DNA of 64,000 nt, from NCBI GenBank assembly GCA_023443285.1, contig JAEZVB010000128.1, forward strand, positions 3,385 through 67,384, read 5' to 3'. Source of the DNA: Bacillota bacterium (lineage in GTDB: Bacteria; Bacillota; Negativicutes; Sporomusales; Sporomusaceae). A model generated the notes under the pieces. That model had not been told where the DNA came from and ran no database searches. It saw only the letters and a program-made list of their open reading frames with translations. The stretch's first letter is position 1; each line of letters starts with the position of its first letter. Shown here one piece after another: positions 34,263 through 62,138 of the stretch. A program made the position numbers and the translations under genes.

Positions 34263-34378
34263 AGGAAGTTGGTCTTAAAATGGGAAAAATCCCAAAATAA
34301 ATCAACTGTTCTAAGAAAGCAACCACAACATTTAGGGTGTTACTTGTTTGTATATCCCAATATACTGTGTTTTGGCTT

Positions 34379-34394
34379 TGGCATGTTTTATGCA
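34379..34394 (+). promoter_or_regulatory. sigma-54 (-24/-12) promoter
   Basis: TGGCAT-GTTTT-ATGCA with GG-N10-GC spacing, about 50 nt upstream of the DUF2064 gene. Confidence 0.6.
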
Positions 34395-34446
34395 TATCTT
34401 AAAAGAATTATAGATAATGAGAATAGCAAATTGGGGGGATATTTCT

Positions 34447-35625: not shown

Positions 35626-36266
35626 ATGTTTATAATGAGCAAATTTTAAACTTCTAGTTGCTGCGATTGCAAAAAAAAGAGTGTGATTTGCAATCGTAGC
35701 CTATTTAATATAGTAATTTGAGGTGTAAAGGTGTGGAAGAAAATATGAATTTGGATCTTAATCGATTGGTAGCAGAGACACTTTATCCAGGGGGACAGGA
35801 AACAAAAGCCAATCAGATTACGTTGTTAGATAATGAAATACAAATAGTTAAGGGGTTACGATATAAAAATTAGCGGTGAAGAGCTAGTAGGAAAATCTAT
35901 CAAACAGGGCATCATTGTTTTGCTTGTGTAGCGGGGGCTGGTAGCAGCTGCCAGGGAAGTTTAGACAACAAGGCAGTCTAAAATAAGGATTTGGTATACA
36001 GCGTAAATAGGAGCGATACTTATCACTGCAACGGCGACGGATGCTACTGATAGGTAGTGTGATTGAAATGTCTTAATTTGAGACAGAGCATATTAGCAAT
36101 AGTCAGAACAAAGATGTGTGATTATTCTGGAATTTTAGACATGCAATCTTTTTGTGAAAAAAAGCAGTCTCAAAATGAGACAGCGGTGCATTGGTTGTCT
36201 TCTTTTGATTCTTGACGCTATGCTACATCAATGTAATACTCATATTAGTAAAGGAGTGTGTATATA

Positions 36267-37386: not shown

Positions 37387-39543
37387 GTGGCAGTTACACA
37401 TTACACGAATGCTAGTTCACCTTCAACAACGGAACAATCAGCTTTTAAAAAGGAACTATTATTTCAAGAGCGGTGGCAAGCTATCCTTAGGTGTAAGGAG
37501 GAGTTTTTACAGAATCAATTGGAGGATCCACACCAACATCCTTATATGGATCAGGATGTTGCTGCCTCTTGGATTAGGTCGCGTAATAGGGGGGTTAATC
37601 CTTATTCGGTTGCAACCGGAAGCCATGTAGACTTGCAACAATTATCGGGAATTTTTGAAAAAAACCATATGCTTATCGAGATCACTAGATCATTATCTCA
37701 GTCTTTTAAAGAAATGATTCTTGCATGCGGCTACATATTTTATTTGCTAGACAATAATGGTGTTATATTACTTCATGAGGGAAGTTTTGAGAATTTTAGC
37801 ACACTTCCTGAATACTATTCAAGGACAGGCGTTATTGCCAATGAAGAAGCGGAAGGCACAACTGCTCATGAATTGTGTCTGCGGCTTAAACGACCGGTAC
37901 AATTATTGGGGCCGGAACATTATTGTGTAGCATTTCAAAATAGTATTGCCACGGCTGCACCGATAAAAGACGACAGCGGTGACATCCAGGCGGCGTTAGT
38001 GTTAGTGAGCCAGCCGTTGCTTAACACTCCTGATGAAGATACCCTTAGAAGGATGGGAATGTATAGTTTGGGTTTGGTGACTTCTTTGGCAACCGCTGTA
38101 GAAACTCAGATTGAATTAAATAAAACAACAAAGAGCTTGGAGAGCGCAAAAAGAACGGCAGAAATGGCCAATAAAGAACTGCAAACCACCCGGGATAAGC
38201 TCATAGCTGTTCACAGCACGCTAAATGCAACTTCCGCGTTTATTGATGAGGGAATAATAATAGTGGACAAACATGGCTTTATTATGCATATTAATCCGGC
38301 CGGAATGCATATGCTGAAGTTAAGTCCGAAACAAACGCTTGACAGGAATATAAGTGAGTTTCTTGATCGTAATTCAAATGTAATGTCCATAGCTGAAAAG
38401 GGCGAGAATTTTACTCTTGAAGAAAAGTTATATGTTGGTGCCGATAAGTGGTTGTATCATCTGTCGGTTCGGCCGGTAATAAATCAGGATACCCAAGAAT
38501 TAGATTCAATTGTTTTGAAAATTAGTCCCAATGAAAAAGGTGCTGCTCAACAGAATAAAAAAATAAGCAATCCGGATGTATATACGTTTGAAGATATTGT
38601 AAGCGAAGATAAGGAGTTCAAAAAGAGTTTAGTATTGGCTCAGCGATTTGCCAGTTCACCGGAAAATATTTTAATAATAGGGGAAAGTGGTACAGGAAAA
38701 GAATTGTATGCGCAGGCTATTCATAATGTAAATCGACCGCAAGGACCATTTATGGCAGTGAATTGCGCGGCAATGCCCAAGGAGTTAATCGGCAGTGAAT
38801 TATTTGGTTATGAAGGTGGCAGTTTTACCGGAGCAGAACGGAACGGCAGACCTGGTAAAATTGAACTTGCTCACGGTGGTACACTTTTTCTTGATGAAAT
38901 TGGTGATATGCCGCTAGAACTTCAAGCTGTATTACTTCGTGCACTGGAAGATAAACAAATAATGCGTGTAGGCGGCAGTCGTTATAAAAAAGTAGACTTT
39001 AGATTAGTTGCTGCCACAAACAAAAACCTCTATAAAATGGTAAAGGAAAACTTATTTCGAGAAGATCTCTATTTTCGACTGTCTGTCCTAACCATTGATG
39101 TTCCTCCACTTAGGAATCGGGGTAATGATGTTTTGGTACTTAGTCAATATTTTATTGAAAAGTATTGCCAGAAATATGGTTGGAAGACACCGCAAATAAG
39201 TTCTGCCGCTCAGAAAAAAATTAGTGAATATGGCTGGCCAGGTAATGTGCGGCAACTCCAAAACGCGATAATCTATGCAGTCAATACTACCCAAGATGGC
39301 CTAATTAAGCCTGAAAATTTACCGAACTATATCATTCTCGAAACTTGTCCGGTAAAACTTGATGATAGTATTAATAATAAAGGTAATATCGGCGAGATGC
39401 TATGTTTGGAAAACCTTGAGAAAGCTGCCATAGAGACTGCCCTTGCGCATTCAAACAACTATGTACCCCAAGCAGCGGAAATTTTGGGGATTAGTCGGTC
39501 GACGCTATATCGAAAACTTAAGGATTATAATATCGAATATTAA
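37387..39543 (+). CDS. sigma-54-dependent transcriptional activator, AcoR-like (GAF-PAS-AAA+-HTH)
   Basis: GAF-like sensor (..EGTTAHELCL..GPEHYC..AAPIKDDSG), a PAS segment, an AAA+ core (GESGTGKE, GSFTGA (GAFTGA variant), LFLDEIGDMP) and a Fis-type HTH (AAEILGISRSTLYRKLK). Confidence 0.9.
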   Translation: MAVTHYTNASSPSTTEQSAFKKELLFQERWQAILRCKEEFLQNQLEDPHQHPYMDQDVAASWIRSRNRGVNPYSVATGSHVDLQQLSGIFEKNHMLIEITRSLSQSFKEMILACGYIFYLLDNNGVILLHEGSFENFSTLPEYYSRTGVIANEEAEGTTAHELCLRLKRPVQLLGPEHYCVAFQNSIATAAPIKDDSGDIQAALVLVSQPLLNTPDEDTLRRMGMYSLGLVTSLATAVETQIELNKTTKSLESAKRTAEMANKELQTTRDKLIAVHSTLNATSAFIDEGIIIVDKHGFIMHINPAGMHMLKLSPKQTLDRNISEFLDRNSNVMSIAEKGENFTLEEKLYVGADKWLYHLSVRPVINQDTQELDSIVLKISPNEKGAAQQNKKISNPDVYTFEDIVSEDKEFKKSLVLAQRFASSPENILIIGESGTGKELYAQAIHNVNRPQGPFMAVNCAAMPKELIGSELFGYEGGSFTGAERNGRPGKIELAHGGTLFLDEIGDMPLELQAVLLRALEDKQIMRVGGSRYKKVDFRLVAATNKNLYKMVKENLFREDLYFRLSVLTIDVPPLRNRGNDVLVLSQYFIEKYCQKYGWKTPQISSAAQKKISEYGWPGNVRQLQNAIIYAVNTTQDGLIKPENLPNYIILETCPVKLDDSINNKGNIGEMLCLENLEKAAIETALAHSNNYVPQAAEILGISRSTLYRKLKDYNIEY

Positions 39544-40580: not shown

Positions 40581-42821
40581 ATGAAAAAAGAATGGATGGA
40601 AAAACACGCAGACGGTAGTTATACGGTTCGTACTTGTGGTTGGTCACCTCCTGGAGACCATCCGGTAGGCTGCGGTATGAAGCTTCATGTAAAAGATGGC
40701 AAACTTGTGAAAGTTGAGGGTGATCCTGAGCATCCAATCAGTCAAGGGCGTCTATGCGTACGCTGCTTGACTTTGCCGGAATTTGTGCATCATCCTGACC
40801 GTATTATTTACCCAATGAAGCGTGCGCCGGAAAATCGCGGCAAAGATAAGTGGGAGAAAATTACCTGGGATGAAGCCTATGATATCATCGTTGAGAAGGT
40901 AAATGGCTTTAAAAAGAATTACGGTGCTGAGTCTATCGTCGTATTCGGCGGAACTGGCCGGGAAGCATGCCTGTATTACTATCCGCTAGGTTTTTCCACA
41001 CTGCAAACTCCAAATGTATGCTATCCGCTGAGCGGCTGGTCCTGCTATGGCCCTCGCTGCGCTATCACTGACTATATCCTTGGTGCGGGCTATCCAGAGA
41101 TTGACTTTGCTGGCCATTACCCTGATCGGTATGATCATCCTGGATATACAGTTCCTAAATACCTGGTACTCTGGGGCAAAATGCCATTATGGTCGAATCC
41201 AGATGGATTCTATGGTCACTCCATCATTGATATGATGAAACGTGGCACTAAAATTATTTCCATCGACCCACGACTCAATTTCCTTTCTGCCCGGGCTGCT
41301 TACTGGATGCAATTACGTCCAGGAACTGACACTGCACTTGCACTTGGTTTCCTGAATGTAATCATCAATGAAGATCTCTATGATCATAAGTTTGTTGAAG
41401 ACTGGTGCTATGGCTTTGATGAGCTTAAAGAACGTGTTCAACAATATCCTGTAGAAAAAGTTGCTGAGATTACCGGCATACCGGCTGCAAAAATTATTGA
41501 ATGTGCGAGAGCTATGGCTACTGCCAAACCTACCGCTATTCAATGGGGTCTGGCTGTCGATGAAAATCCGAACGGTGTACAATTAGGTCATGCTATCCTT
41601 TCGCTCTCCGCCATTACCGGCAACCTCGACGTGCCTGGCGGCATTACCTTAGGGCCACCCGCTGCTCTTCTTGGCAAATGGCGTGTGGAAACTCGTTCGC
41701 AGATTTCCGAAGAGCTTTGGGACAAACGTATCGGCGCCAAAGAATGGCCTGCGCTTAGCACTGCCTTGGCGACTACCCACCCGGATGAGACTTTGGACAC
41801 CCTGGAATCAGGCAAGCCATACAAACTCAGAATGGGTTGGTTTAATAGTAGTAACTTTATTACTGCTACCAATTCGGCTGCGCCGCAAAGATGGTATGAG
41901 GCTCTTAAAACCTTGGAATTTAACGTTGTTCAAGATTGCTTCATGACCCCGACTGCAATGGCATTTGCTGATGTATTCCTGCCACTTCCGACGTTTGCTG
42001 AGCATGACGGTGTTGTACTGACTCACTTTGGTCGAAATGCTATCTTTGCAGGCGCAATGAATGAAGCATTCCGCGTTGGTGACACCAGGTCAGATATTGA
42101 AGTTTGTATCGAATTGGGCAAACGCCTCAATCCGGAAAACTGGCCGTGGGAAAATGTTCCCGACTTCTTCACTGATCAACTTAAACCAGAACTGGGTATT
42201 GATTTTGACGGCTTAAGAGAAGCCGGTGTATTCCAGCCTGGCTATGAGTACAGAAAACATGAGACTGGCAAATTGAGATTTGACGGTGAGCCTGGCTTTA
42301 ATACAGTAACAGGTAAAGTTGAACTTTATTCAACACTCTTTGAAGAATGGGGCGAAGATCCGCTTCCTTACTATAAAGAGCCACCATACAGCCCAGTAAG
42401 TACTCCTGAAATTGCGAAGGAATATCCATTGGTACTCACTACCGGTGCCAGAAAAACCACCTCTTTCCATTCAGAGCATAGACAAATTAAATCCTTGCGC
42501 GATATTGATCCAGATCCGATTTTGGAAATTAATCCAGAAACGGCTGCTAGCCTAGGCATTAAAGAAGGCGATTGGGTATATATTGAAAACCAATTTGGTA
42601 AGTGCAAAGAAAAAGCTCATTTAATGCCTGCTATGAAACCTGGTGTTGTTCATGCTACTCATGGCATGTGGTACCCAGAAGAAGAAGCCGAAGAACCAAG
42701 CCTGTATGGTGTATGGAAATCCAATATTAATACCTTGATCCCTCATAAGCACATTGGTAAACTTGGTTTCGGTGCGCCGTTCAAAGCTATTCTCTGCAAA
42801 GTATATAAGGCAGAAGACTAA
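40581..42821 (+). CDS. bis-PGD (DMSO reductase family) Mo/W oxidoreductase catalytic subunit, Tat-less (alpha-1)
   Basis: 746 aa. It has molybdopterin-oxidoreductase blocks (GDPEHPISQGRLC, IISIDPR, LRPGTD) and a C-terminal dinucleotide-binding barrel (TGKVELYS..EYPLVLTTG..SFHSEH). No twin-arginine signal is present, and the N-terminal Cys spacing is atypical. Confidence 0.85.
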   Translation: MKKEWMEKHADGSYTVRTCGWSPPGDHPVGCGMKLHVKDGKLVKVEGDPEHPISQGRLCVRCLTLPEFVHHPDRIIYPMKRAPENRGKDKWEKITWDEAYDIIVEKVNGFKKNYGAESIVVFGGTGREACLYYYPLGFSTLQTPNVCYPLSGWSCYGPRCAITDYILGAGYPEIDFAGHYPDRYDHPGYTVPKYLVLWGKMPLWSNPDGFYGHSIIDMMKRGTKIISIDPRLNFLSARAAYWMQLRPGTDTALALGFLNVIINEDLYDHKFVEDWCYGFDELKERVQQYPVEKVAEITGIPAAKIIECARAMATAKPTAIQWGLAVDENPNGVQLGHAILSLSAITGNLDVPGGITLGPPAALLGKWRVETRSQISEELWDKRIGAKEWPALSTALATTHPDETLDTLESGKPYKLRMGWFNSSNFITATNSAAPQRWYEALKTLEFNVVQDCFMTPTAMAFADVFLPLPTFAEHDGVVLTHFGRNAIFAGAMNEAFRVGDTRSDIEVCIELGKRLNPENWPWENVPDFFTDQLKPELGIDFDGLREAGVFQPGYEYRKHETGKLRFDGEPGFNTVTGKVELYSTLFEEWGEDPLPYYKEPPYSPVSTPEIAKEYPLVLTTGARKTTSFHSEHRQIKSLRDIDPDPILEINPETAASLGIKEGDWVYIENQFGKCKEKAHLMPAMKPGVVHATHGMWYPEEEAEEPSLYGVWKSNINTLIPHKHIGKLGFGAPFKAILCKVYKAED

Positions 42822-42849
42822 TACTAAAAATTCGAATGGAGGGATAAGG

Positions 42850-43185
42850 ATGTCTCGTAACGGTTTATTGATTGATTATGAATATTGTACAGGCTGCCAT
42901 AGCTGTGAAGTTTCTTGCAGAAATGAGAAAAACCTCCCTAAAGACAAATGGGGAATCAAAATGACTGAAGTAGGCCCGTTTAATGTAGAAGGCGATAAAT
43001 GGGAGTGGAACTTTGTTCCGGTTCCTACTCAACTTTGTGATTTGTGCGAAGACCGCGTGGCTAAAGGACAAAAACCAGCGTGTGCTCTTCATTGCTTGGG
43101 TCAATGTATGGAAGTTGGTCCTATTGAAGAACTGGCAAAGAAAGCTGAAGCAAAAGGTAAAAGCGTAGCTATATTTGTGCCTTAA
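42850..43185 (+). CDS. small 4Fe-4S ferredoxin-type subunit (beta-1, 111 aa)
   Basis: CTGCHSCEVSC and CDLCEDRVAKGQKPACALHC motifs are present. RBS GGAGGG. It is much shorter than DmsB-type four-cluster subunits. Confidence 0.8.
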   Translation: MSRNGLLIDYEYCTGCHSCEVSCRNEKNLPKDKWGIKMTEVGPFNVEGDKWEWNFVPVPTQLCDLCEDRVAKGQKPACALHCLGQCMEVGPIEELAKKAEAKGKSVAIFVP

Positions 43186-49438: not shown

Positions 49439-49454
49439 TGGCACGAATTTTGCA
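49439..49454 (+). promoter_or_regulatory. sigma-54 (-24/-12) promoter
   Basis: TGGCAC-GAATT-TTGCA. The 15-nt core TGGCACGAATTTTGC is identical to the one at 58354. Confidence 0.75.
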
Positions 49455-49564: not shown

Positions 49565-50392
49565 ATGCGCAATGCAATAGTCGTATTTACTAAAGTACCT
49601 AAGGCTGGGGAAACCAAAACCCGGCTTACTACAGATCGGGACGGAATCTTAACTCCGGAAGAAGCTATGGCTTTTTATGAAGGCTGCCTGCTTGACGTGA
49701 TTAATGTTTGCATCGAAGCAAACTGTGGCGATATCCGGATTTGTTACAATCATGACGGCGACCGTGAATGCCTGGAAAAACTGCTTTCTAGGGTGTGTGA
49801 CCGCGCACAGATTAAGGAAGTTTACCCAGACCAAGGCGGCAATTTTGACCAATGTATGCAGTATGCTGCTGATTATATTTTGAAAAACGGAGCTTCTGAC
49901 CGCTTGGCAGATAGCGTTATTATTGTCGGTGGTGATCTGCCAAGTTTACAGCCGAATATTATACAAGATGCTGTTTGTAAGCTGGAGCTGCTGGCAGCAA
50001 GTGAAAATGGTCTAAAAATTGCTAAGAAGCTGTCAGGTGTACCCAAGGATTTGGGCGCAGCCTTAGTGGAAGGTGCCTGTCAGGAAGGTGGGTTTTCAGT
50101 AGTTGGCTTTACCTGTACTACGCCTTTTGATTTCAACCGGGTATTTTATAATTCTGACGGGATAACCGCGCTGGATATGTTGGTAACTAAAGCAGTACAG
50201 GAAGATATACCGTTTGGTGTCGTTGAAGCTGCGTCTGACGTAGATATTCCAGTTGACTTAGCGAGTATGATACCGATTGTCAGGGCATTGGAATTAGCGG
50301 CGCGTTGCGACAAAAGCATTAAGATACCGGTAAACACCATTGCGGTTTTAAATGAACTTGGATTGGAATCCACGGCAGTTAAACACCGTTAA
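49565..50392 (+). CDS. DUF2064 (TIGR04282-like, MobA-like GT-A fold) protein, paralogue 2
   Basis: Motifs AIVVFTKVPKAGETKTRL, GGNFDQCMQYA, VGGDLPSLQ, EGGFSVVGF and DVDIPVDL are present. By eye it is roughly half identical to 34447..35283. Confidence 0.75.
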   Translation: MRNAIVVFTKVPKAGETKTRLTTDRDGILTPEEAMAFYEGCLLDVINVCIEANCGDIRICYNHDGDRECLEKLLSRVCDRAQIKEVYPDQGGNFDQCMQYAADYILKNGASDRLADSVIIVGGDLPSLQPNIIQDAVCKLELLAASENGLKIAKKLSGVPKDLGAALVEGACQEGGFSVVGFTCTTPFDFNRVFYNSDGITALDMLVTKAVQEDIPFGVVEAASDVDIPVDLASMIPIVRALELAARCDKSIKIPVNTIAVLNELGLESTAVKHR

Positions 50393-50414: not shown

Positions 50415-51536
50415 GTGGTGACTATTATGGGTAGAACGTGTATGGATACGCTAGCGGAAAACTGCATTGAATGTGGAAAATGTATAGAAATTTGCCAATT
50501 TTTAAAGAAAAATGGCAAAAGCCCGGCGGCTATTGCTAAACAAGGGGTTGAGGTTAGCGAAGCCTTTAGTTGTTCCTTATGTGGTGCGTGTGAGGCCGTT
50601 TGTCCTATAGGGCTAAGCCCAAAAGAAATGTTTGCCAGCCGAAGGAATGATGCAGTAGCTAATGGTGAATTGGATATTGATGAATATCGTTATCTATTTC
50701 CTGATAGAAAAAACAATGTTATGAATGTATACCGCAGCTATTACGGTATTGACTATCATGATATAGAAAATGTAGGCAGTGGCGGAACTTGGTTTTTTCC
50801 TGGCTGTACCTTGCTGACTTATTCGCCGGAACTAACGCGTGAGGTTTACCGCAGGTTGCAGACAGACTGTAATTGCCAGGGCATATGGACAGAGTGTTGC
50901 AGCAAACCTTTGATTCAAATGGGTTTGCTGCAAAGAGCCGAAGCTATGCAGGCAGAGTTAAAGGAATTTGTTCAAAAACATAACATTACAACGCTAATTA
51001 CGGCATGTCCGGGTTGTTATTATCAATTGAAAAAAGTTTTTGAATCCTGTGAAGTTGCTGTTCAGACTGTGTATGAAGTATTAAAAATAGAGCCGCTTAA
51101 ACGGACAGATAAAATCAAGTGCACCATCCATGATGCCTGTCCTGATCGTTTTGAACTTAAGTTTGCCAGTCAAGTGCGCCAAGCGTTAGAGAAAAGTGGC
51201 TTTTCTATAATAGAAATGAAACATAGCAAAAAGCAAGCGATTTGTTGTGGAAGCGGTGGAATGATTTCTCATTTTAATCCTGAATTAACGGAAGAACTCG
51301 TAGAACAAAGAATGAATGAAGTTAAGCAGTCCGGTGCCGATATTCTGGTAGGGTATTGCCTAAGTTGTGTATTGAAATTTGATGTTTTTAGTTCGCCTAT
51401 TTCTGTAACTCACGCGTTACACTTGTTGCTGGATCAAAAAAAAGAATTTTCTGGGGCGAAAGCACGGGTGGCTAAAATGCTCACCGGTGCAGATGGGGAA
51501 AAAGTATGGGAACAAATTATGGCAGAGGAAAGGTAA
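50415..51536 (+). CDS. Fe-S oxidoreductase with 2x[4Fe-4S] and two CCG domains (HdrD/GlpC/DsrK-like)
   Basis: Motifs CIECGKC..C, CSLCGACEAVCP, FFPGCT, CCSKP, ACPGC, HDACP and CCGSGG are present. Exact start is uncertain (GTG 50415/50418 or ATG 50427). Confidence 0.8.
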   Translation: MVTIMGRTCMDTLAENCIECGKCIEICQFLKKNGKSPAAIAKQGVEVSEAFSCSLCGACEAVCPIGLSPKEMFASRRNDAVANGELDIDEYRYLFPDRKNNVMNVYRSYYGIDYHDIENVGSGGTWFFPGCTLLTYSPELTREVYRRLQTDCNCQGIWTECCSKPLIQMGLLQRAEAMQAELKEFVQKHNITTLITACPGCYYQLKKVFESCEVAVQTVYEVLKIEPLKRTDKIKCTIHDACPDRFELKFASQVRQALEKSGFSIIEMKHSKKQAICCGSGGMISHFNPELTEELVEQRMNEVKQSGADILVGYCLSCVLKFDVFSSPISVTHALHLLLDQKKEFSGAKARVAKMLTGADGEKVWEQIMAEER

Positions 51537-51555
51537 GAAAAGGAGACAAAGCAAC

Positions 51556-52506
51556 GTGAACAATCATGAACTTGCCACAGCACTTACAAAAATGTTGACA
51601 CTCCGGTGGTCGCCGGTTGCTGTAAAACTATTAAAGCCGGGTGAGGAAATTCCAAAAAATGTAACTCAGCCTTCGGTTCCGCTAAGACACTGTCAGGCTA
51701 TTACTCTTGCTAGACGAGGCAATAGTTTGTATATGCCGCCAAGCAAACATGCCTGTCCGGATGGTGCTGCAATTATGGGGCTGATTCCGATGTCTCCTAA
51801 GCTGCGTTCTGGCGAATTATATCTACTGTTTAAAAAATTACCATCCATTGAATGTGCACAAAAGATGATCAGTACACGCCAGGAGTTTGAGGCCGGCAGT
51901 TATGCTGCGACTGTGCTTGCGCCGCTTGAAGACGCTACTTTTGAACCGGATGTCGTAATTTTTACCATTTATCCTGAGCAAATGATGTGGTTAATGTGCG
52001 CATCTAGCTATAGCACCGGAGAACGGCATAATTTTCATACCTCTGGTTACAACTCGACTTGTGCTGATTTGACGGTACAGGTTATGAAAACTCAGCAAAT
52101 GAATATTTCTTTTGGTTGTTATGGGGCCAGAGCCATTAGTGATATAAGTGATTTTGAAGCCTATGTTTCTATACCATATCAACAGCTGCCTACACTGGTA
52201 GGGGCGCTGGAAAAGTTGTCAGTTAAAAGTATACCGGAAGCTCGACGGCGGATTTATATGCCGCCGGTTATTGATAAAGTTGCTTGTCCCGAACAAGAGG
52301 GAAGTAATTCGGTCGAGCTTCGTATTGACAGCGACCGGTGCACCGGCTGTAGCTTATGTGAAGCCTTTTGTCCGGAAGCCGTAATTGAGATGGTCACTAT
52401 CGATGGGCAGCAAAAAGCAAGTGCACCGGCTGCCGAGAAATGCTGTGCCTGTTATACCTGTGTCGGGCAGTGTCCGCAGAAAGCCATACAGCTGACACTG
52501 CGGTAA
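51556..52506 (+). CDS. DUF169-domain protein fused to a C-terminal 2x[4Fe-4S] ferredoxin
   Basis: GTG after AAAAGGAGA. The DUF169-like body has WSPVAVKLL, RHCQAI, CPDGA and FGCYGAR. The C-terminus carries CTGCSLCEAFCP and CCACYTCVGQCP. Confidence 0.65.
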   Translation: MNNHELATALTKMLTLRWSPVAVKLLKPGEEIPKNVTQPSVPLRHCQAITLARRGNSLYMPPSKHACPDGAAIMGLIPMSPKLRSGELYLLFKKLPSIECAQKMISTRQEFEAGSYAATVLAPLEDATFEPDVVIFTIYPEQMMWLMCASSYSTGERHNFHTSGYNSTCADLTVQVMKTQQMNISFGCYGARAISDISDFEAYVSIPYQQLPTLVGALEKLSVKSIPEARRRIYMPPVIDKVACPEQEGSNSVELRIDSDRCTGCSLCEAFCPEAVIEMVTIDGQQKASAPAAEKCCACYTCVGQCPQKAIQLTLR

Positions 52507-52541: not shown

Positions 52542-54740
52542 ATGAGTGAAGAAGTAAAAAAGGCGGCATGTCACTTCTGTCATATGAACTGTGGCATGCT
52601 GGCAACAGTCGAAAATGGAGTGGTAACAAAGGTTGTGGGAGACCCGGAACATCCCTTTAATATGGGGGCGCAATGTCCGAGGGGTGCTTCGGCCTTAGAT
52701 CACCTCAACCACCCTAACCGGATTAACTATCCGCTTAAACGGGTAGGCGAACGCGGATCAGGTGAATTTAAACGCGTATCGTGGGAAGAAGCATTGGATG
52801 ATATTGCAGCACGGTTAACTGCGTTAAAAGAACAATATGGTGCTGAAACCATTGCTACTACCGGTGGAACGAACCGGACTGACGATTTTGCCCGGAGACG
52901 TTTCTTTAACCTTTTGGGTAGTCCTAATGTTATTCACACAGCTCCTGTGTGCTGGATTCCTACCTTTCTCACTGAGGCAGCTTCCTACGGTTGGGTTGCT
53001 TCTGAACCTGAACTTGCTGGAGCAAAATGTGTCGTCCTTTGGGGACACAACGCGGGGTCTTCTTATTTGCCGGAAATGCGCGGAGTGTTAGCAGCTAAAG
53101 CCAACGGAACCAAAATTATCGCTGTTGATCCTAACTTTACAGAGACGGCTTCGAAAGCTGATGTTTGGTTATCATTAAAACCAGGTTCAGACAACGCTCT
53201 GGCGCTTGCCTGGTTGAACGTTATTATTAGCGAAGGTTTATACGACTTTAATTTCGTTGACGAATGGACAGTAGGCTTTGAAGAATTAGCGGAAAGGGTA
53301 GAGGAGTATACTCCTGAGTGGGCAGCTGAAAAAACCGGCCTGTCTCCGGAATTAATTGCTGAGACTGCCAGAATGTACGCAATGAGCAAGCCGGCTTGTA
53401 TCGTCTGGGGTGTTGCAGCTGATCAATTAGGCAGAGGTAGTGCTGCTTCCGCTCAAGCACGTGCAGCACTGCGGATTATCTGTGGTAACTTAGATGTTCC
53501 GGGCGGCGATGTTATGCCAGGACCTCACCCGACCTTTGTTACAGACTGGGAAATGGAATTAAACGATATGCTGCCGGAAGAGCAGCGGGCGAAACAAATC
53601 GGGTCAGATCGGTTTAAACTGAATTCTTGGCCAGGCTATAAAATACTAACCGAAAATATGTTGAAGGTTTGGGGGAAAAGTATCCCGGCAGAATGGTTCT
53701 GTGAAGCCAATCCTTCGATGTTGTTCAGAGCCATGGCAACAGGTGATCCGTATCCAATAAAAGCTTGTATTACCTTGGCGAATAATCCGCTCGTATCGTA
53801 TGCTAACTCCAAAATGGTTTATGAAGGACTAAAAAATCTTGATTTATATGTTGCAATGGAATATTGGATGACACCATCGGCACTCTTGGCTGACTATGTT
53901 TTACCAGCTGCCGGCTGGTTGGAAAGACCAGTTATGACAACTACGTATGGGGTTTCTGATTGGCTAATTGCCTCCGAGAAAGCAATTGAACCATTATTTG
54001 AGCGTAAGACTGACATAGAGTTATGGTCTGAGCTTGGGCATAGAATGGGGCAAGCGGAACATTGGCCATGGAAAACAGATGAAGAGATATTTAAAGAACG
54101 CCTTGATCCGATCGGTTTAGAAACTGACAGCTATGAAGAATTTGTGCAGCTTTATAGAATGCATTTTGCTGATCGTGATTATCGTAAATTCGAGACTCGC
54201 GGGGTGGCTACACCTTCAGGCAAAATCGAATTAAAAATTTCTACCTTTGAACAACTTGGTTATGATCCATTGCCTCATTATGTTGAACCGCCGTTTAGTG
54301 CCGAAACCAAGCCGGATTTAGCCGAACAATATCCGTTAAGTCTTGTTGCCGGTGGCGGATTTATGCCGTTCTTCCATTCGGAACATCGGGAAATAACAAG
54401 AATCAGGCTGCTAAGGCCGTATCCCCGGGTTGCCATTAATCCGGAGCTTGCCAAAAAGATGGATATCAAGGAAGGTGAATGGCTTTGGATTGAAACGCCA
54501 ACCGGCAAGGTTAAGCAGACAGCCTTTATTACTCCGGCCGTAGCTCCTGATGTAATTCAGGCAGAACGTGGCTGGTGGTTCCCTGAAAAAGAAATGAAGG
54601 CTCCGAGCTTAATGGGCGTATTTGAATCTAATATTAATGTTTGCATAGATGATGATCCGGATACTTTGGATGAGCTTTGCGGCAGCTTTTGCGCTCGAGG
54701 CGTTATGTGCCGGATTTCGAAAGTGGAGGGGAACGACTAA
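52542..54740 (+). CDS. bis-PGD (DMSO reductase family) Mo/W oxidoreductase catalytic subunit, Tat-less (alpha-2)
   Basis: 732 aa with the canonical N-terminal CHFCHMNCG...C [4Fe-4S] motif, GDPEHPFNMG, IIAVDPN and LKPGSD. The C-terminal barrel has SGKIELK..QYPLSLVAG..FFHSEH. No RR signal is present. It is a paralogue of alpha-1. Confidence 0.9.
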   Translation: MSEEVKKAACHFCHMNCGMLATVENGVVTKVVGDPEHPFNMGAQCPRGASALDHLNHPNRINYPLKRVGERGSGEFKRVSWEEALDDIAARLTALKEQYGAETIATTGGTNRTDDFARRRFFNLLGSPNVIHTAPVCWIPTFLTEAASYGWVASEPELAGAKCVVLWGHNAGSSYLPEMRGVLAAKANGTKIIAVDPNFTETASKADVWLSLKPGSDNALALAWLNVIISEGLYDFNFVDEWTVGFEELAERVEEYTPEWAAEKTGLSPELIAETARMYAMSKPACIVWGVAADQLGRGSAASAQARAALRIICGNLDVPGGDVMPGPHPTFVTDWEMELNDMLPEEQRAKQIGSDRFKLNSWPGYKILTENMLKVWGKSIPAEWFCEANPSMLFRAMATGDPYPIKACITLANNPLVSYANSKMVYEGLKNLDLYVAMEYWMTPSALLADYVLPAAGWLERPVMTTTYGVSDWLIASEKAIEPLFERKTDIELWSELGHRMGQAEHWPWKTDEEIFKERLDPIGLETDSYEEFVQLYRMHFADRDYRKFETRGVATPSGKIELKISTFEQLGYDPLPHYVEPPFSAETKPDLAEQYPLSLVAGGGFMPFFHSEHREITRIRLLRPYPRVAINPELAKKMDIKEGEWLWIETPTGKVKQTAFITPAVAPDVIQAERGWWFPEKEMKAPSLMGVFESNINVCIDDDPDTLDELCGSFCARGVMCRISKVEGND

Positions 54741-55282
54741 TGCACTGGGGAATGCTGATTGACTTAAGAAAATGTGCCGGCTGTTATGCCTGCACGATTG
54801 CATGCCAAAATGAAAACGAATTACCTTTTGATATGAAATACTGCAAAGTTGCCAAAGTGGGGCCAATTGGGGAGTTCCCGAATTTAACTTCCTATAATAT
54901 TACGCTAGGGTGTATGCATTGCCAAGATGCTCCCTGTGTTGACGGCTGTCCTACTGGGGCAAGTTACCACCGGGAAGACGGTATTGTGACAATTGATCCG
55001 GAGAAATGCGTAGGTTGTCAATTCTGTATGGTAGTTTGCCCATATGGTGTGCGGCAAATGAATAAAGAAAATGGAGTCGTTGAAAAATGCTCGATGTGCT
55101 TCAATCGCTTAGAAGAGGGTATGGTTACACGGTGTGTAGAAACCTGCCAGTTAAAGGCAAGGCATGTCGGTGATCTGGATGATCCTGACAGTGAGATTGT
55201 TAAACTGATACGGAAGCATAATGCACAGCCATTGTACCCGCATTTAGGAACAAAACCATCAGTTTACTATATCATGCCTTAG
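54740..55282 (+). CDS. four-cluster 4Fe-4S ferredoxin subunit (DmsB/PsrB-like, beta-2)
   Basis: TAATG overlap with alpha-2. Motifs CAGCYACTIAC, CMHCQDAPCVDGCP, CVGCQFCMVVCP and CSMC...C are present. Confidence 0.9.
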   Translation: MHWGMLIDLRKCAGCYACTIACQNENELPFDMKYCKVAKVGPIGEFPNLTSYNITLGCMHCQDAPCVDGCPTGASYHREDGIVTIDPEKCVGCQFCMVVCPYGVRQMNKENGVVEKCSMCFNRLEEGMVTRCVETCQLKARHVGDLDDPDSEIVKLIRKHNAQPLYPHLGTKPSVYYIMP

Positions 55283-55293
55283 GAGGGATTAGA

Positions 55294-56262
55294 ATGGAAA
55301 AACAGCAAGAATATTGGGGAAGTCAACCGGCGTGGTATTTCTTTCTAGCCGCAATGGGAGCAATGATGTTTGTTATTGCTGCGGTAGCAGATTTGCTAGG
55401 AAACCCAATAGCCGGACAAATTAATGGCTGGGTTAGTATTGTGGCCTTGGCTGCAGCCGGAATCGGCGCGTTGTTACTGTTAGAAGAATTAACACATAAA
55501 AGCAAGGGGCATTTGGTGAATGCGCGTCCTTTTGCTTCGGTTATGAGTTTTGGTTCTCTCGTACAGAGTTTGTATATGCCGTTGGTTTTTGTATATGGTA
55601 CGTTTTTCTTTGATTTTATTCCTTGGGCTGGATTGGGCTGGCTCAAGATGATTGTCGCGGTTCTGGCTATCATTGCGGCGCTGCTCTATGTTACCTACCC
55701 GGGCGTAGAGTTGGGCGAAGCAAGAGGCAGAGGTTTCTGGAACGGTGGCGGTCTGATTGGCGTTTTCTTAATTAACGGGGCTGTAACCGGAGCTGCCGCA
55801 TTAACTCTTATCTTGTGTGTACTTGGTTATAGTGAAAGTGCTTATACGATTACGATTAAGAATATAGCGGCCGCTTTGTTAGTAGCGCAGCTCTTCGCTA
55901 TACCTGGCTATGTATTAGGAATGAAGCTGTCACCAGCCGAAGAAGCACGTCGGGGAGCCAATAAATTGTGGAGTGGCGAGTTTAGTTCCTCTTTTTGGGC
56001 TGGAACCGTTATCTTCGGAACGTTAGTACCAATGATTATTACCTTGTTATTTACTTCTATTTATTGGCTGGTTATAGCAGCCGTACTGGTTCTTGTTGGC
56101 GGGGTCTGCTTCAGAATTGATTTCTTAAGAGCTGCCGTAAGAGTGACTTTGCCTGGTGAAGAAAAGGCTGAAATGAGCAGAAAAGAAATTGCTAGTCTAG
56201 CTGCCGTATTGGAAAATCGCTGGCAGGAAAAGGCTAGAGTATTAAACCCACAAAATAAGTAG
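55294..56262 (+). CDS. NrfD/PsrC-like integral membrane quinone-interacting subunit (gamma-2)
   Basis: 322 aa with about 8 TM helices. It directly follows the alpha-beta pair, as in PsrABC/DmsABC-type operons. Confidence 0.75.
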   Translation: MEKQQEYWGSQPAWYFFLAAMGAMMFVIAAVADLLGNPIAGQINGWVSIVALAAAGIGALLLLEELTHKSKGHLVNARPFASVMSFGSLVQSLYMPLVFVYGTFFFDFIPWAGLGWLKMIVAVLAIIAALLYVTYPGVELGEARGRGFWNGGGLIGVFLINGAVTGAAALTLILCVLGYSESAYTITIKNIAAALLVAQLFAIPGYVLGMKLSPAEEARRGANKLWSGEFSSSFWAGTVIFGTLVPMIITLLFTSIYWLVIAAVLVLVGGVCFRIDFLRAAVRVTLPGEEKAEMSRKEIASLAAVLENRWQEKARVLNPQNK

Positions 56263-56271: not shown

Positions 56272-56736
56272 ATGAACGAGATAACCTTTGCTACTAGTGA
56301 AGATGAAGAAGAATTACAGGATTTATTTACAACTTACGGCATGGGTCTTGCCGGCGATATTGAGGAACATGTACTAGTAAAGGCAGATAATAAGGTGTTG
56401 GCTGGGGCGATGTTATCTCAAATTGATTCGAACTTCTTTCATTTGTTAGTATTTGCCGTGAGAGAAGACGAGCGTAACAGCGGGAGTGGCAGTCAATTGC
56501 TGCAAGAACTGCTTAGAGAACCTGAAAAGTATTGTCGAACTCCATTTGACCACACGGACAGCTCTTATAAGGTTACAACAGTTGCCAAAGGTGATGCTGC
56601 CCGTTTTTATGAAAAAAATGGATTTATCGCCTGTGCTTTTACTGAACTAGTTGAGCCTTATGATGAACAATGTGTGGAATGTCCTGATAAAGCAGATTGT
56701 AAACCTGTCGCCATGATGATTACTTGTCATAAATAA
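56272..56736 (+). CDS. GNAT-family N-acetyltransferase
   Basis: 154 aa with ..R..G.GS.LL.. (ERNSGSGSQLLQELL) and the FYEKNGF motif. Confidence 0.7.
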   Translation: MNEITFATSEDEEELQDLFTTYGMGLAGDIEEHVLVKADNKVLAGAMLSQIDSNFFHLLVFAVREDERNSGSGSQLLQELLREPEKYCRTPFDHTDSSYKVTTVAKGDAARFYEKNGFIACAFTELVEPYDEQCVECPDKADCKPVAMMITCHK

Positions 56737-56772: not shown

Positions 56773-57561
56773 GTGGAAGCAACTTTTTTATTACTAGGGA
56801 CTGGTGCAGGTCCTGGCTTACCTTCCTTCTTCTGTGATTGCGTGGGATGCCAGGAAGCCAGAAGTAATCCTGAGTTAGCCAGAACACGCAGTGGAGCATT
56901 CATCGACACGGGTAATAGCAAGATTCTTATTGATGCTTCTCCTGATTTACGCCGTCAGCTTATCAGAGAAAACATTACCCAAGTTGACAGTATATTTATG
57001 ACTCATTGGCATTATGATCATTTTGGCGGACTGGGAGAACTTGAATATTATATTAAATTATCAAGAAATGTATCAATCAATCTATTTTTACCGCCAAGTG
57101 CCGTACCGCAGTTTAGCGATGCTTTTCCTAACCTGAGGGAAGTTTTTGTGGTTAAAGCATGGGAATTTGGCGAGAAATATTGTTTGGATGAAGTACAGTT
57201 GACTCCTTTGCCGGCAAATCATGGGATAGAAACGGCGGGATTTTTGTTGGAAACACCGGGTAATAAGCTGGCTTATTACCCGGATACCGCCGGACTTCCT
57301 GAAGCTAGCGCGGCGATGGTGCGCGGGGTTGATTGGTTAATCTGTGATGCGACTTTCCACGGCGAAAACTGGTTTCCGCACGCTCATATGTCCCTTGAAC
57401 AGGCAATTGAGCTTGGCAGGCAAATCGGAGCTAAAAAAACAGTGTTGACTCATTTGGCTATTCATTATAGTCAACCCGTAACTACCTCTCAGCTTGCTGA
57501 AGAAGTAGCCCGACATGAGAACGCTTGTGTCGCTTATGACGGAATGCGTATTAAGCTGTAA
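56773..57561 (+). CDS. MBL-fold metallohydrolase, PhnP/PqqB-like
   Basis: LLLGTGAGPGLPSFFCDCVGCQEAR N-terminal Cys motif and THWHYDHFGG (HxHxDH). Confidence 0.75.
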   Translation: MEATFLLLGTGAGPGLPSFFCDCVGCQEARSNPELARTRSGAFIDTGNSKILIDASPDLRRQLIRENITQVDSIFMTHWHYDHFGGLGELEYYIKLSRNVSINLFLPPSAVPQFSDAFPNLREVFVVKAWEFGEKYCLDEVQLTPLPANHGIETAGFLLETPGNKLAYYPDTAGLPEASAAMVRGVDWLICDATFHGENWFPHAHMSLEQAIELGRQIGAKKTVLTHLAIHYSQPVTTSQLAEEVARHENACVAYDGMRIKL

Positions 57562-57589
57562 AACGGTTTGCGGATAAGAGGTGGAAGTA

Positions 57590-58183
57590 ATGAAAAGGTC
57601 ACTTGGAACTAAATTATTTGCAATGCCTTCACCGGTATGGGTTGTTGGAAGCTATGATGCTGACGAGCATCCTAATATTATGACGATTGCATGGGGCGGA
57701 ATATGTTGTTCAGCTCCCCCGTGCATAGCGATTTCGTTGCGAAAGTCACGTTTGACGTATACTAATATTTTGCAGCAGAAAGCGTTTACGATTAATATAC
57801 CGTCAGTAAAACATATAGCGGAAACAGACTATATTGGCCTTGTTTCAGGAAAAGACACAAACAAATTTGCCGTGACTGGTCTTACTCCCGTGCGAAGTGA
57901 TAATGTGAATGCGCCTTATGTAAAAGAGTTTCCTTTAGCCTTTGAGTGCAAATTGCTTCATGCACTTGAAATGGGAGCGCATACGCAGTTTATCGGGCAA
58001 ATTCTTGGCGTCAAAGCAGATGAAGATGTTCTTGACCATAATGGAATGCCGATCGCCAGCCTGGTGAATCCGTTAATTAGCTGCACTTCAGACCGTGCTT
58101 ATTATGCGTTTGGCGAATATTTGGGTCAGGCATATTCTACCGGGCTAGCACTTGTGGATAAGCAAGAAGGCGGATTAAACTAG
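57590..58183 (+). CDS. flavin reductase-like (split-barrel FMN-binding) domain protein
   Basis: RBS GAGGTGG. PVWVVGSYD....PNIMTIAWGG is typical of Flavin_Reduct domains. Confidence 0.7.
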   Translation: MKRSLGTKLFAMPSPVWVVGSYDADEHPNIMTIAWGGICCSAPPCIAISLRKSRLTYTNILQQKAFTINIPSVKHIAETDYIGLVSGKDTNKFAVTGLTPVRSDNVNAPYVKEFPLAFECKLLHALEMGAHTQFIGQILGVKADEDVLDHNGMPIASLVNPLISCTSDRAYYAFGEYLGQAYSTGLALVDKQEGGLN

Positions 58184-58612: not shown

Positions 58613-59593
58613 ATGTTTGACAGTTATGCTCGAAATATTGATTATTTGCGTGTCTCTGTTACCAATAGGTGTAATTTACGATGCAAGTACTGTATGCCGG
58701 AAGAGGGTGTCGAAGATCTTGGTCATGGCAATATACTAAGCCTGGAAGAGATTGTTCGTCTTGTTAAGGTTGCTGCAAGGATTGGAATTCAAAAGGTAAG
58801 ACTAACAGGCGGCGAGCCGCTTGTTCGCAGAAATATTACCAAGCTTATTGCCGATATTGCCTGTATTCCGAAGATAAATGATATAGCGATTACGACAAAT
58901 GGTATGTTATTTGCCGACATGGCCGAGGAACTGAAGGCAGCTGGTTTGACAAGGGTGAATTTCAGTGTGGACAGCCTTGAAGAAGATAAGTTTCAATATA
59001 TAACCAGCCGGGGAAGCTTGCATGAAGTGGTGCGTTCTATTTCCAAGGCTTTGGAACTCGGGATGGCTCCGGTAAAAATTAATACTGTAGTAATGAAAGG
59101 CATTAATGATAATGAGATACTGGATTTTGTTGAATTAACCAGAAAATTGCCACTGCATGTACGGTTTATTGAGTTTATGCCTGTAGGCGATTTACCCTTC
59201 TATAAAACAGACCGGGTTGTATCAGTAAGTGAAATTAGAGAAATCATTGAACAAAAATATGAATTGTATAAAGAGGCTAATGTGCAAGGCAATGGTCCGG
59301 CCAAGTCCCATCGGGTGCGCGGTGGTCTGGGGACAGTTGGTTTTATCAGTGCCATGAGCAATCATTTTTGCAGTGAATGCAACCGGATTCGTATGACAGC
59401 TGACGGTAAACTCCGGGGATGTTTGTTTGGTAAAGAAGAGTTTAATTTAAGATTGGCTCTGCAAAATAATGCCAGTGATGAGATACTGACAGATATCTTT
59501 AGCAGGGCAATCAGGGAAAAGCCACAGCGCCATCATATGGATGAAGGCTGGGGAGAAGACAATAAACGCAAAATGTACCAAATAGGGGGATAA
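58613..59593 (+). CDS. moaA: GTP 3',8-cyclase (radical SAM) MoaA
   Basis: YLRVSVTNRCNLRCKYCMP radical-SAM motif, RLTGGEPL, and a C-terminal CSECNRIRMTADGKLRGCLF auxiliary cluster. Confidence 0.95.
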   Translation: MFDSYARNIDYLRVSVTNRCNLRCKYCMPEEGVEDLGHGNILSLEEIVRLVKVAARIGIQKVRLTGGEPLVRRNITKLIADIACIPKINDIAITTNGMLFADMAEELKAAGLTRVNFSVDSLEEDKFQYITSRGSLHEVVRSISKALELGMAPVKINTVVMKGINDNEILDFVELTRKLPLHVRFIEFMPVGDLPFYKTDRVVSVSEIREIIEQKYELYKEANVQGNGPAKSHRVRGGLGTVGFISAMSNHFCSECNRIRMTADGKLRGCLFGKEEFNLRLALQNNASDEILTDIFSRAIREKPQRHHMDEGWGEDNKRKMYQIGG

Positions 59594-59594
59594 A

Positions 59595-60074
59595 ATGGAA
59601 TTTACACATTTCAATAAGGCCGGTTATGCTTGCATGGTGGATGTCAGTGAAAAAAATGATACAGTACGCACTGCAATAGCCCAGGCGGTTATTCATATGC
59701 AACCAGCAACCTTGCAGGCGATAAAGAGTGGCGGTATAAAAAAAGGTGATGTTTTGGGAGTAGCACAGGTAGCCGGTATTATGGGAGCAAAACAAACGTC
59801 CGGTCTTATTCCCATGTGTCATCCCCTAATGTTGACTTCTGTAGATATTGAGTTTGAACTAGACGAAACGAATTCTAAGATAATTATCCGTTGTCAGGTT
59901 AAAACGACAGGGAAAACCGGCGTGGAAATGGAGGCTGTCAGTGGTGTTAGTGTAGCCGCTATGACAATTTACGATATGAGCAAAGCTGTTGATCGCTGGA
60001 TGAAAATCACAGATATTCAGCTAATGGAAAAAATGGGCGGCAAAAGCGGTCATGTTAAGCGACCGGCAGAGTGA
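59595..60074 (+). CDS. moaC: cyclic pyranopterin monophosphate synthase MoaC
   Basis: 159 aa with MVDVSEK, KGDVLGVAQVAGIMGAK.T..LIPMCHPL, TGKTGVEMEA and TIYDM.KA. Confidence 0.95.
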   Translation: MEFTHFNKAGYACMVDVSEKNDTVRTAIAQAVIHMQPATLQAIKSGGIKKGDVLGVAQVAGIMGAKQTSGLIPMCHPLMLTSVDIEFELDETNSKIIIRCQVKTTGKTGVEMEAVSGVSVAAMTIYDMSKAVDRWMKITDIQLMEKMGGKSGHVKRPAE

Positions 60075-60097
60075 GGCTAAAATATGGAGATGATACG

Positions 60098-60586
60098 ATG
60101 TATAAAACGGCTATCCTGATTCTCAGTGACAAAGGCTCCAGAGGTGAGCGGCAGGATCTAAGCGGTAAGCAGATTCAGCAATCCCTGGGGACTGAGTATA
60201 GTACCGAATATTACAAAATAATACCTGATGAAAAAGAACTGATTATAAAGGAACTTTGTTATATTTGCGATGAATTAGCGCCGGCGCTACTCATTACTTC
60301 CGGTGGGACTGGTTTTTCCAACCGTGATGTAACTCCTGATGCTACCAGAGAAGTAATTGAAAAAGCAGTTCCGGGAATACCGGAGGCTATGCGTTATTAC
60401 GGTTTGCAGAAAACACCTAAGGCAATGTTGTCAAGAGCGACAGCCGGAATCCGAGGCAAGACGCTGATTATCAATCTACCCGGCAGTGTCAAGGGAGTAC
60501 GCGAGTCGCTGGAAGCGATTGTTCCGGCTCTTGATCATGCACTAGATATTCTGCAGGGGACGGCTTCTGAATGTGGGCAGGGTTAG
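60098..60586 (+). CDS. MoaB/Mog-family molybdopterin adenylyltransferase-type protein
   Basis: ILILSDKGSRGERQDLSG, ITSGGTGFSNRDVTPDAT and LPGS.KGV motifs of the MoCF_biosynth domain. Confidence 0.85.
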   Translation: MYKTAILILSDKGSRGERQDLSGKQIQQSLGTEYSTEYYKIIPDEKELIIKELCYICDELAPALLITSGGTGFSNRDVTPDATREVIEKAVPGIPEAMRYYGLQKTPKAMLSRATAGIRGKTLIINLPGSVKGVRESLEAIVPALDHALDILQGTASECGQG

Positions 60587-60626
60587 CTAAAAATGAGTGT
60601 GCTTTACCAAATAGGAGGAATTGAGT

Positions 60627-61061
60627 ATGGCAAAAGTATTGGCTGTAAATATAAGTGAAAAAACGGGAGAAATAAAGCGCCCCATTGAAAAAGGATATTT
60701 TGAAGTAAATTCCGGTTTGCAGGGGGACGCCCATGCAGGTGACTGGCATAGACAGGTAAGTTTGCTGGGAAATGAAAGTATTGATAAGATTAGAAACCAG
60801 GGATTTAATCAGCTCGAACCAGGCAATTTTGCTGAGAATATTACCACGGAAGGCATTGTCTTATTTGAACTGCCGATAGGCACTAAGATTAAGATAGGTG
60901 AAACCCTGATGGAGGTGACACAGATAGGCAAGGAATGCCACAAGGGATGTGCCATACGGGAACAGACGGGTGACTGTGTTATGCCCAGAGAAGGCATATT
61001 TACTAAAGTACTTACGCCGGGCTGGATAAAAGCCGGTGACAGAATAGAAATAGCTAATTGA
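60627..61061 (+). CDS. MOSC-domain protein
   Basis: 144 aa with GLQGDAHAG.WHRQVSLL and GNFAENITTEGI beta-barrel motifs. RBS AGGAGG. Confidence 0.75.
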   Translation: MAKVLAVNISEKTGEIKRPIEKGYFEVNSGLQGDAHAGDWHRQVSLLGNESIDKIRNQGFNQLEPGNFAENITTEGIVLFELPIGTKIKIGETLMEVTQIGKECHKGCAIREQTGDCVMPREGIFTKVLTPGWIKAGDRIEIAN

Positions 61062-61093
61062 CTTTCGAAGGATAAATCGGGAGGGGAAAATCC

Positions 61094-62116: not shown

Positions 62117-62138
62117 AGAAAATGCAGGAGGTGGAGAC

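Follow-up and report, generated by a model that had tools for sequence, protein, structure and literature searches.

What do two DUF2064 proteins do in a genomic island that encodes molybdenum/tungsten (Mo/W) enzymes, and is it their role to replace a MobA protein that the local molybdenum cofactor (Moco) genes seem to lack? The question is raised by a 64-kb stretch of DNA from a member of the Sporomusaceae (the window; contig C56:3385-67384), in which the genes for the two proteins, DUF2064-A and DUF2064-B, and the Moco genes are placed as follows.

34447..35283, + strand: DUF2064-A, 278 residues, a member of an old paralogue clade
49565..50392, + strand: DUF2064-B, 275 residues, a CofC/FbiD-like nucleotidyltransferase and the first gene of its operon
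58613..63377, + strand: Moco operon moaA, moaC, moaB, MOSC, moeA-like, moeA, which continues beyond the window to mobA-mobB

The DUF2064 paralogues do not replace MobA. We suggest, with a probability of about 0.4, that they would provide a nucleoside diphosphate (NDP)-activation step in an accessory cofactor or maturation pathway, acting on a non-pterin molecule beside MobA. The first-pass annotation of this DNA had held that mobA is absent from the local Moco cluster and had offered the hypothesis that DUF2064 supplies the guanylyl transfer because MobA is missing. The absence is true only inside the window. The same-strand string that follows moaA (58613) runs past the window through moeA, an [FeFe]-hydrogenase, a cytochrome b, mobA and mobB, and the mobA-like gene (C56:69292-69930, same strand) lies 1.9 kb past the window end. 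Thus, the missing mobA is an artefact, since the window ends before mobA-mobB. The mobA-like gene scores 126.8 bits against PF12804, and every best NCBIfam match is MobA. It is below the strict TIGR02665 cut-off, as in all 117 genomes of the class with a match, and the neighboring mobB is above its own cut-off (157 vs 76 bits). A genome-wide search for mobA and mocA returned, elsewhere in the genome, a second mobA, a mocA-like gene and a DVU_1551-family transferase. MobA-like genes are also found in all 22 island-bearing genomes of the class and in four genomes from other lineages, and mobA directly adjoins a DUF2064 gene in 9 of these 22. Because MobA-like genes are present next to the island and elsewhere, the DUF2064 proteins do not stand in for MobA. 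The lack of mobA inside the window and the nucleotidyltransferase-like fold are the two points that could be quoted for such a substitution, which we now hold to be extremely improbable.

Family membership and predicted fold

DUF2064-A and DUF2064-B are 51% identical over 271 residues in a gap-free alignment (E 5e-106), and both belong to Pfam DUF2064 (PF09837; 64.3 and 48.5 bits against a gathering cut-off of 25.8). The earlier description of the two as clear paralogues is borne out by these values, and the five motifs listed with it (FTKVPKxGExKTRL, FDQxMQYA, VGGDxPxLQP, EGGFxxxG(Y/F) and D(I/V)D(L/I)PVDL) are all found in the alignment. No further DUF2064 copies were found in this genome. 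The start of DUF2064-A is set at the TTG at 34447, since homologues support this position over the opening of the frame at 34417. The ratio of nonsynonymous to synonymous substitution rates against orthologues is about 0.06-0.07 (0.07 for A), which corresponds to strong purifying selection on both paralogues. Both are real and functional. More than 278 DUF2064 homologues exist; relatives carry the database name 'transferase 1, rSAM/selenodomain-associated', and the protein atlas matches of a DUF2064 paralogue are other DUF2064 clusters only.

The AlphaFold2 model of DUF2064-B, built on 16 diverse homologues, has a predicted local distance difference test (pLDDT) score of 90 and a predicted template modeling (pTM) score of 0.90. 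Its top match, first in both Foldseek and VIA-align, is the DUF2064 structure 3CGX (Z 23.4), which is also the only entry reached by a profile search of the Protein Data Bank (PDB) sequences with DUF2064. CofC (2I5E, Z 20.0), 3-phospho-D-glycerate guanylyltransferase (7P97, Z 19.8) and FbiD (6BWH, Z 18.7) follow in VIA-align. The root-mean-square deviation for matches of this type is 2.2-2.5 across 197-200 residues, so that most of the domain is covered, and there is a clear gap below them, with IspD, TarI and GlmU at Z of 15 or less. The motifs K-x-P-K-x-G-x-x-K-T-R-L, G-G-D-x-P and D-x-D-x-P-x-D are invariant in 16 diverse members, including paralogue A. They correspond to the canonical N-terminal K/R-rich loop, the G-G-D-x-P motif and the C-terminal D-x-D-x-P-x-D motif, and are kept in both paralogue clades. 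DUF2064-A and DUF2064-B are CofC/DUF2064-type nucleotidyltransferases. From motifs and model, the most economical reading would be an active enzyme that converts a nucleoside triphosphate (NTP) and a phosphorylated acceptor into an NDP-linked product.

The same residues bear on a different idea, namely that the proteins are non-catalytic carriers or chaperones that bind a nucleotide or cofactor and keep the fold for binding only. Dedicated maturation chaperones are common for bis-MGD (bis-molybdopterin guanine dinucleotide) enzymes, and a trigger-factor paralogue stands beside mobA-mobB-DUF2064 in Syntrophomonadaceae loci. However, in both clades every acidic and every basic residue of the canonical NTP-transferase motifs is invariant, which is the pattern expected for catalysis. 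We therefore consider a carrier role very unlikely.

CofC, FbiD and 3-phospho-D-glycerate guanylyltransferase are the closest characterized folds, and they have the same N-terminal K/R-rich loop and acidic motifs. The CofC/FbiD enzymes are small, single-domain proteins that join GMP to a phosphorylated acceptor, a plan to which the DUF2064 paralogues bear a likeness. However, the paralogues exceed these enzymes by about 65 residues, since they have a C-terminal extension and a helical segment as an insertion, and their context is a Mo/W-enzyme island with no F420 genes. Against the CofC/FbiD family TIGR03552 they score 18.1 and 16.3 bits, far from the curated cut-off of 105. A role in the F420 pathway, together with a CofD/FbiA partner, was considered and set aside: the genome has one PF01933 match, outside the island, and this is uninformative because the family also matches Escherichia coli and Bacillus subtilis controls without F420.

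MobA belongs to the same broad nucleotidyltransferase fold class and has the same reaction type. The mobA and DUF2064 genes often adjoin, and both occur in strings of Moco genes. The first-pass claim of a MobA fold is right as far as this fold class goes, but it does not extend to membership of the MobA family. MobA is not among the 50 best VIA-align matches of the DUF2064 model (Z of at least 12.9), and hhalign gives a probability of 2% against an alignment of 11 MobA sequences from the same genomes. The MobA profile PF12804 reaches 16.6 bits, with copy A only, against a cut-off of 27, and NF001457 gives 17.8 bits against 164. In addition, each of the island genomes examined has MobA alongside DUF2064. 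No fused form of at least 483 residues was found, which is weak evidence; an open reading frame (ORF) of 499 residues in genome G134 was rejected as a fusion, being separate mobA and DUF2064 genes in different frames. A complex prediction for MobA, MobB and DUF2064 scored 0.00 and gives no verdict, so that it weighs neither way.

The best fold match, 3CGX, represents the TIGR04282 system, which is now named arsenosugar biosynthesis glycosyltransferase and shares Pfam DUF2064 membership with the island proteins. Both paralogues fall below the curated cut-off of this equivalog (71.9 and 65.2 bits vs 134), and the best match in the genome to its partner glycosyltransferase, TIGR04283, has 56 bits against a cut-off of 182. 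The literature on TIGR04282, DUF169 and COG2043 yielded incidental mentions only. What the island DUF2064 proteins keep of this system is the link with a TIGR04167 ArsS-type radical S-adenosylmethionine (SAM) gene. They differ from it in having other fixed partners (a DUF169-ferredoxin protein, an HdrD-like protein, a GNAT protein and a PhnP-like protein of the metallo-beta-lactamase (MBL) fold), and in their strict coupling to enzymes of the acetylene-hydratase clade.

Co-inheritance and gene order

The window proteins were mapped onto 62 loci from Sporomusaceae and other Negativicutes, Peptococcaceae, Desulfitobacteriaceae, Syntrophomonadaceae, Neomoorella, Geobacteraceae and Desulfuromonadaceae. 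All ORFs were clustered, the identities of the clusters were checked, and distances were counted within 10 kb of DUF2064. In the window, DUF2064-B heads a co-directional string up to 58183, in agreement with the earlier statement that one of the paralogues is the first gene of the alpha-2 operon. Behind DUF2064-B follow, in this order, the genes listed below up to the flavin reductase; the second enzyme of the island is given last.

50415..51536, + strand: HdrD-like CCG/2x[4Fe-4S] protein (Pfam CCG and Fer4); follows DUF2064 in 24 copies
51487..52506, + strand: DUF169 domain fused to ferredoxin (PF02596, 213.9 bits); the most conserved partner, 43/62 loci
52542..54740, + strand: alpha-2, bis-MGD enzyme of the acetylene-hydratase clade, no twin-arginine translocation (Tat) leader
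54677..56262, + strand: beta-2 (four-cluster Fe-S protein) and NrfD-type membrane subunit
56272..56736, + strand: GNAT acetyltransferase; 40/62 loci, directly upstream of DUF2064 in 17 copies
56773..57561, + strand: PhnP-like MBL-fold phosphodiesterase; conserved module member, 40/62 loci
57581..58183, + strand: flavin-reductase-domain protein; frequent module member, 16/62 loci
40581..43185, + strand: alpha-1 and small Fe-S subunit, a second acetylene-hydratase-clade enzyme

The closest solved relative of both alpha subunits, over nearly their full length, is the tungsten acetylene hydratase 2E7Z (E 1.6e-135 for alpha-2 and 2.3e-93 for alpha-1). The acetylene-hydratase branch of the bis-MGD family also contains catechol dehydroxylases (PMC7028382).

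The association of the DUF2064 subfamily with these Mo/W enzymes is tight. With thresholds fixed beforehand (E of at most 1e-40 for DUF2064, 1e-150 for alpha-2, 1e-150 for alpha-1 and 1e-60 for DUF169-ferredoxin), the four are found in the identical 22 of the 201 genomes of the class. Presence and absence are split even within the genus of the window, where 7 of 10 genomes have all four. Relaxing the alpha-2 threshold to 1e-100, which is the level of similarity to acetylene hydratase, added no genome, and the alpha-1 orthologues in the same 22 genomes are 77-98% identical. In a second order (103 genomes around a Desulfitobacterium), DUF2064 is found in 21 genomes, each of which also has the enzyme clade. 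Though related genomes are not independent samples, the pattern still needs several gains or losses. The DUF2064 paralogues are strictly coupled to the acetylene-hydratase-clade enzyme island.

The core partners (DUF169-ferredoxin, GNAT or MBL) lie within 10 kb of DUF2064 in 51 of the 62 loci, in two phyla, and the HdrD-like protein and the flavin reductase are frequent at this distance. The alpha-2/beta-2/NrfD genes are as close in only 29 loci and a Moco biosynthesis gene in 35, while 46 have alpha-2-type or Moco genes. The conserved core is DUF2064, HdrD-like protein, DUF169-ferredoxin, GNAT, PhnP-like hydrolase and flavin reductase. In a tree of 64 DUF2064 copies, the A-type copies form an old clade across two phyla (Bacillota and Thermodesulfobacteriota). 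The B-type copies of Geobacter and Desulfuromonadaceae fall inside Negativicutes, which indicates horizontal transfer of the island.

The core is often interleaved with moeA, mobA, mobB, MOSC and moaA. At the level of operons, the orders MOSC>DUF2064>moaB>mobB>DUF2064 (L027), mobB>DUF2064>MOSC (L067) and moeA>mobA>DUF2064>HdrD>DUF169>GNAT (G134) are seen. These arrangements speak for a role on the pterin itself, in which DUF2064 would act beside MobA to add a different or second nucleotide, or to make a W/Mo-pterin form specific to the clade. In MobA and CofC a phosphate ester attacks an NTP, and the chemistry expected of DUF2064 is the same as that of MobA. In many lineages mobA or mobB is directly upstream of DUF2064, and DUF2064 is interleaved with MOSC, moaB, moeA and moaA. 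Genomes with no alpha gene within 10 kb have alpha-2 homologues of 52-54% identity on the same contig; where the island is spread out in this way (Desulfuromonadaceae, Selenomonadales), the module is still found with the Moco genes, and the catalytic subunits are 17-52 kb away. In addition, cofactor insertion limited the heterologous production of acetylene hydratase (PMC6013536). However, the nearest characterized folds use small phospho-acids and not pterins, profile similarity between DUF2064 and MobA is nil, and the solved acetylene hydratase carries an ordinary bis-MGD (PMC6013536). A pterin substrate also leaves the fixed GNAT, PhnP-like, DUF169 and ArsS-type partners unexplained. We thus regard it as unlikely. 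The earlier proposal of pterin dinucleotide formation by these proteins has lost its missing-mobA argument, but it keeps the tie of the subfamily to Mo/W enzymes and the interleaving with Moco genes.

A proposed nucleotide-activated, non-pterin acceptor

Three things make us favor NDP activation of a non-pterin molecule: the folds nearest to DUF2064, the partners that are fixed (GNAT, phosphodiesterase, DUF169 and HdrD-like), and the family-wide link with an adenosylating radical SAM enzyme. ArsS is known for adenosylating radical SAM chemistry (PMC13598754). The ArsS-type gene (TIGR04167; 405-407 bits vs a cut-off of 300) is present in 14 of the 62 loci and in all 22 island genomes, and in relatives it lies 1-5 kb from the A-type copy. 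Genes that recur with it encode a Rep3-like winged-helix protein, a further radical SAM protein and an SsuA-like ABC transporter. In the window, remnants of this arrangement flank DUF2064-A.

34016..34275, + strand: frameshifted ABC ATPase remnant (tblastn); the intact gene precedes DUF2064 in relatives
35901..35978, + strand: ArsS-type radical SAM remnant, last 26 residues, just downstream of DUF2064-A; 81% identity to the L062 orthologue, also seen as a weak match in a separate search

In the mechanism that we propose, DUF2064 proteins would join an NTP, probably GTP, to a phosphorylated acceptor, giving an NDP-acceptor and pyrophosphate. The acceptor would most likely be a small, cofactor-like molecule other than a pterin, and the remaining accessory genes that are strictly co-inherited (those for the ArsS-type radical SAM enzyme, GNAT, the PhnP-like phosphodiesterase, DUF169-ferredoxin, the HdrD-like protein and the flavin reductase) would make or process it. 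The island enzymes would need this molecule for their maturation or function. In this view, the respiratory island would be horizontally mobile and under sigma-54 control, with cytoplasm-facing Mo/W enzymes of the acetylene-hydratase/catechol-dehydroxylase clade at its center; DUF2064-A and DUF2064-B would be fixed accessory components of it and would act beside the ordinary MobA/MobB system, not instead of it. A more specific version is that DUF2064, DUF169-ferredoxin, HdrD-like, GNAT, PhnP-like and ArsS-type proteins together form the pathway for a new organic cofactor or a modified pterin needed by alpha-2-type enzymes, with DUF2064 in charge of NDP activation. In this full form the idea is doubtful, and we would not expect it to hold.

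Several points weigh against the proposed NDP activation. A literature search on the term DUF2064 gave no paper, and so no biochemistry for any protein of the family. No transferase that would consume an NDP-activated product was identified. The ArsS-type gene sits on another contig in this genome, where its sub-module is intact (C151; L080:9982-14091), and it is also present in 4 genomes of the class without the island. Five genomes of the second order have the enzyme clade without DUF2064. Two of these are small, incomplete assemblies, and the other three are complete and have only distant members (33-41% identity); therefore, not every member of the clade needs the module. Moreover, since the island is inherited as one unit, a cofactor role and a catabolic role cannot be told apart by co-occurrence.

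The catabolic role is that the module serves the substrate side, i.e., that it activates or processes what the reductases take up or release, probably a phenolic compound or an aromatic acid, for example by nucleotidylating a phosphorylated intermediate. The island also encodes transporters of the major facilitator superfamily (MFS), of the aromatic-acid:H+ symporter type and others. It appears to be an inducible respiratory unit, probably with an aromatic acceptor, because aromatic-acid-type MFS transporters occur here together with an NrfD anchor, a sigma-54 activator of the PAS-domain type, and an [FeFe]-hydrogenase plus cytochrome b. Such transporters and a PAS activator are typical of inducible catabolic or respiratory units, the Moco genes could be neighbors merely because the enzymes need Moco, and in Desulfitobacteriaceae loci the module is accompanied by genes for a sugar-type ABC importer, an APH-family kinase, a nucleoside hydrolase and an old yellow enzyme (OYE) reductase. 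However, the DUF2064 genes are inserted between Moco biosynthesis genes and not beside the transporters, and the module sequences are very conserved across lineages in which alpha-2 has diverged by about 50%. The characterized catechol dehydroxylases, in addition, act on free catechols (PMC7028382). A substrate-side role is possible, though we lean away from it.

The acetylene-hydratase/catechol-dehydroxylase clade matters for the gut metabolism of drugs, neurotransmitters and polyphenols, and for anaerobic aromatic breakdown. Work on the characterized catechol dehydroxylases used natively purified protein (PMC7028382), and acetylene hydratase was reasonably active in E. coli only after fusion to a chaperone tag that aids cofactor insertion (PMC6013536). 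The DUF2064 pair and its partners look like an undescribed helper set for these Mo/W enzymes. This set of five or six genes, none of them studied, sits inside Moco operons and is in every case inherited together with one branch of the clade; it is a testable candidate for the missing helpers, and such a reading would give DUF2064 and DUF169 their first functional context.

Regulation and other genes of the island

The promoters and the activator of the island are as follows.

49439..49454, + strand: sigma-54 -24/-12 promoter of the DUF2064-B/alpha-2 operon, TGGCACGAATTTTGCA; perfect match to TGGCAC-N5-TTGCW
34379..34394, + strand: candidate sigma-54 promoter of DUF2064-A, TGGCATGTTTTATGCA; 2 mismatches, read from the sequence
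37387..39543, + strand: PAS-domain sigma-54 activator of the island

Each paralogue had been placed directly behind a sigma-54 promoter. For DUF2064-B, which starts 110 nt downstream of a perfect -24/-12 element, this stands. An element with at most one mismatch is found upstream of 24 of 62 homologous genes, compared with about 4 expected from background density. Judged by its correctly spaced -24 GG/-12 GC element and the activator in the island, the DUF2064-B operon is a predicted sigma-54 operon. The case for DUF2064-A is weaker. Its candidate promoter has the correct GG-N10-GC spacing, and both of its deviations also occur in orthologous B promoters. The predicted sigma-54 start sites lie at about 49466 for B and about 34406 for A.

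Two further observations concern sigma-54. A perfect element on the minus strand at 35609-35624 points at an ORF of 68 residues (35306-35512, - strand), which is oriented antisense and reads towards the 3' end of DUF2064-A. Six Peptococcaceae-type loci (L033, L044, L047, L051, L056 and L066) have a full rpoN between DUF2064 and the HdrD-like gene, and in those lineages the island has its own sigma factor.

Among the partners, the DUF169 domain is extremely conserved, with a mean column identity of 68% across phyla; four of its cysteines and one histidine are invariant, and these may build a site for a metal or a cluster. The structure model of DUF169-ferredoxin is poor (pLDDT 61), and no solved relative of GNAT was found by sequence. 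An alpha-2 orthologue (83% identical; G108:C41:87904-90087) has one in-frame TGA, which could be a selenocysteine codon or the mark of a broken gene.

A trigger-factor homologue (339 bits vs a cut-off of 180) is part of the island in L034, L041, L043, L049, L050, L052, L054 and L059, and in several of these it directly precedes mobA-mobB-DUF2064. It may be a dedicated chaperone, like those of reductive dehalogenases. In the Desulfitobacteriaceae loci L037, L049, L050, L052, L059, L066 and L069, the OYE-family reductase, the sugar-type ABC importer, the APH-family kinase and the nucleoside hydrolase, which is of the inosine-uridine type, adjoin the module; these added enzymes would fit the processing of a nucleoside-like compound.

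Within the Moco string, an alternative molybdopterin synthase was considered because the local operon has no moaD or moaE and the module has a cyclic-phosphodiesterase-like MBL protein. It was rejected, since other parts of the genome have one match to MoaE that exceeds the cut-off (28 bits) and three to MoaD/ThiS. A group-A [FeFe]-hydrogenase gene starts at 63536 (63536-64000 in the window and on; C56:66920-69164; L081:1-1780). A separate, small C-terminal hydrogenase piece and a cytochrome b like the gamma subunit of formate dehydrogenase also lie between moeA and mobA, which suggests a membrane-linked, H2-oxidizing module that may feed the island reductases.

Two small ORFs, 36267-36500 (78 residues) and 36611-36889 (92 residues, Cys-rich), are conserved in several related islands, and no family match was found for either product. 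The 92-residue protein begins MCW-C-NP-C-G-C-KPP and recurs in 10 loci. An IS200-like gene (Y1 transposase; 31980-32438) is found at the island's left edge and is consistent with mobility of the island.

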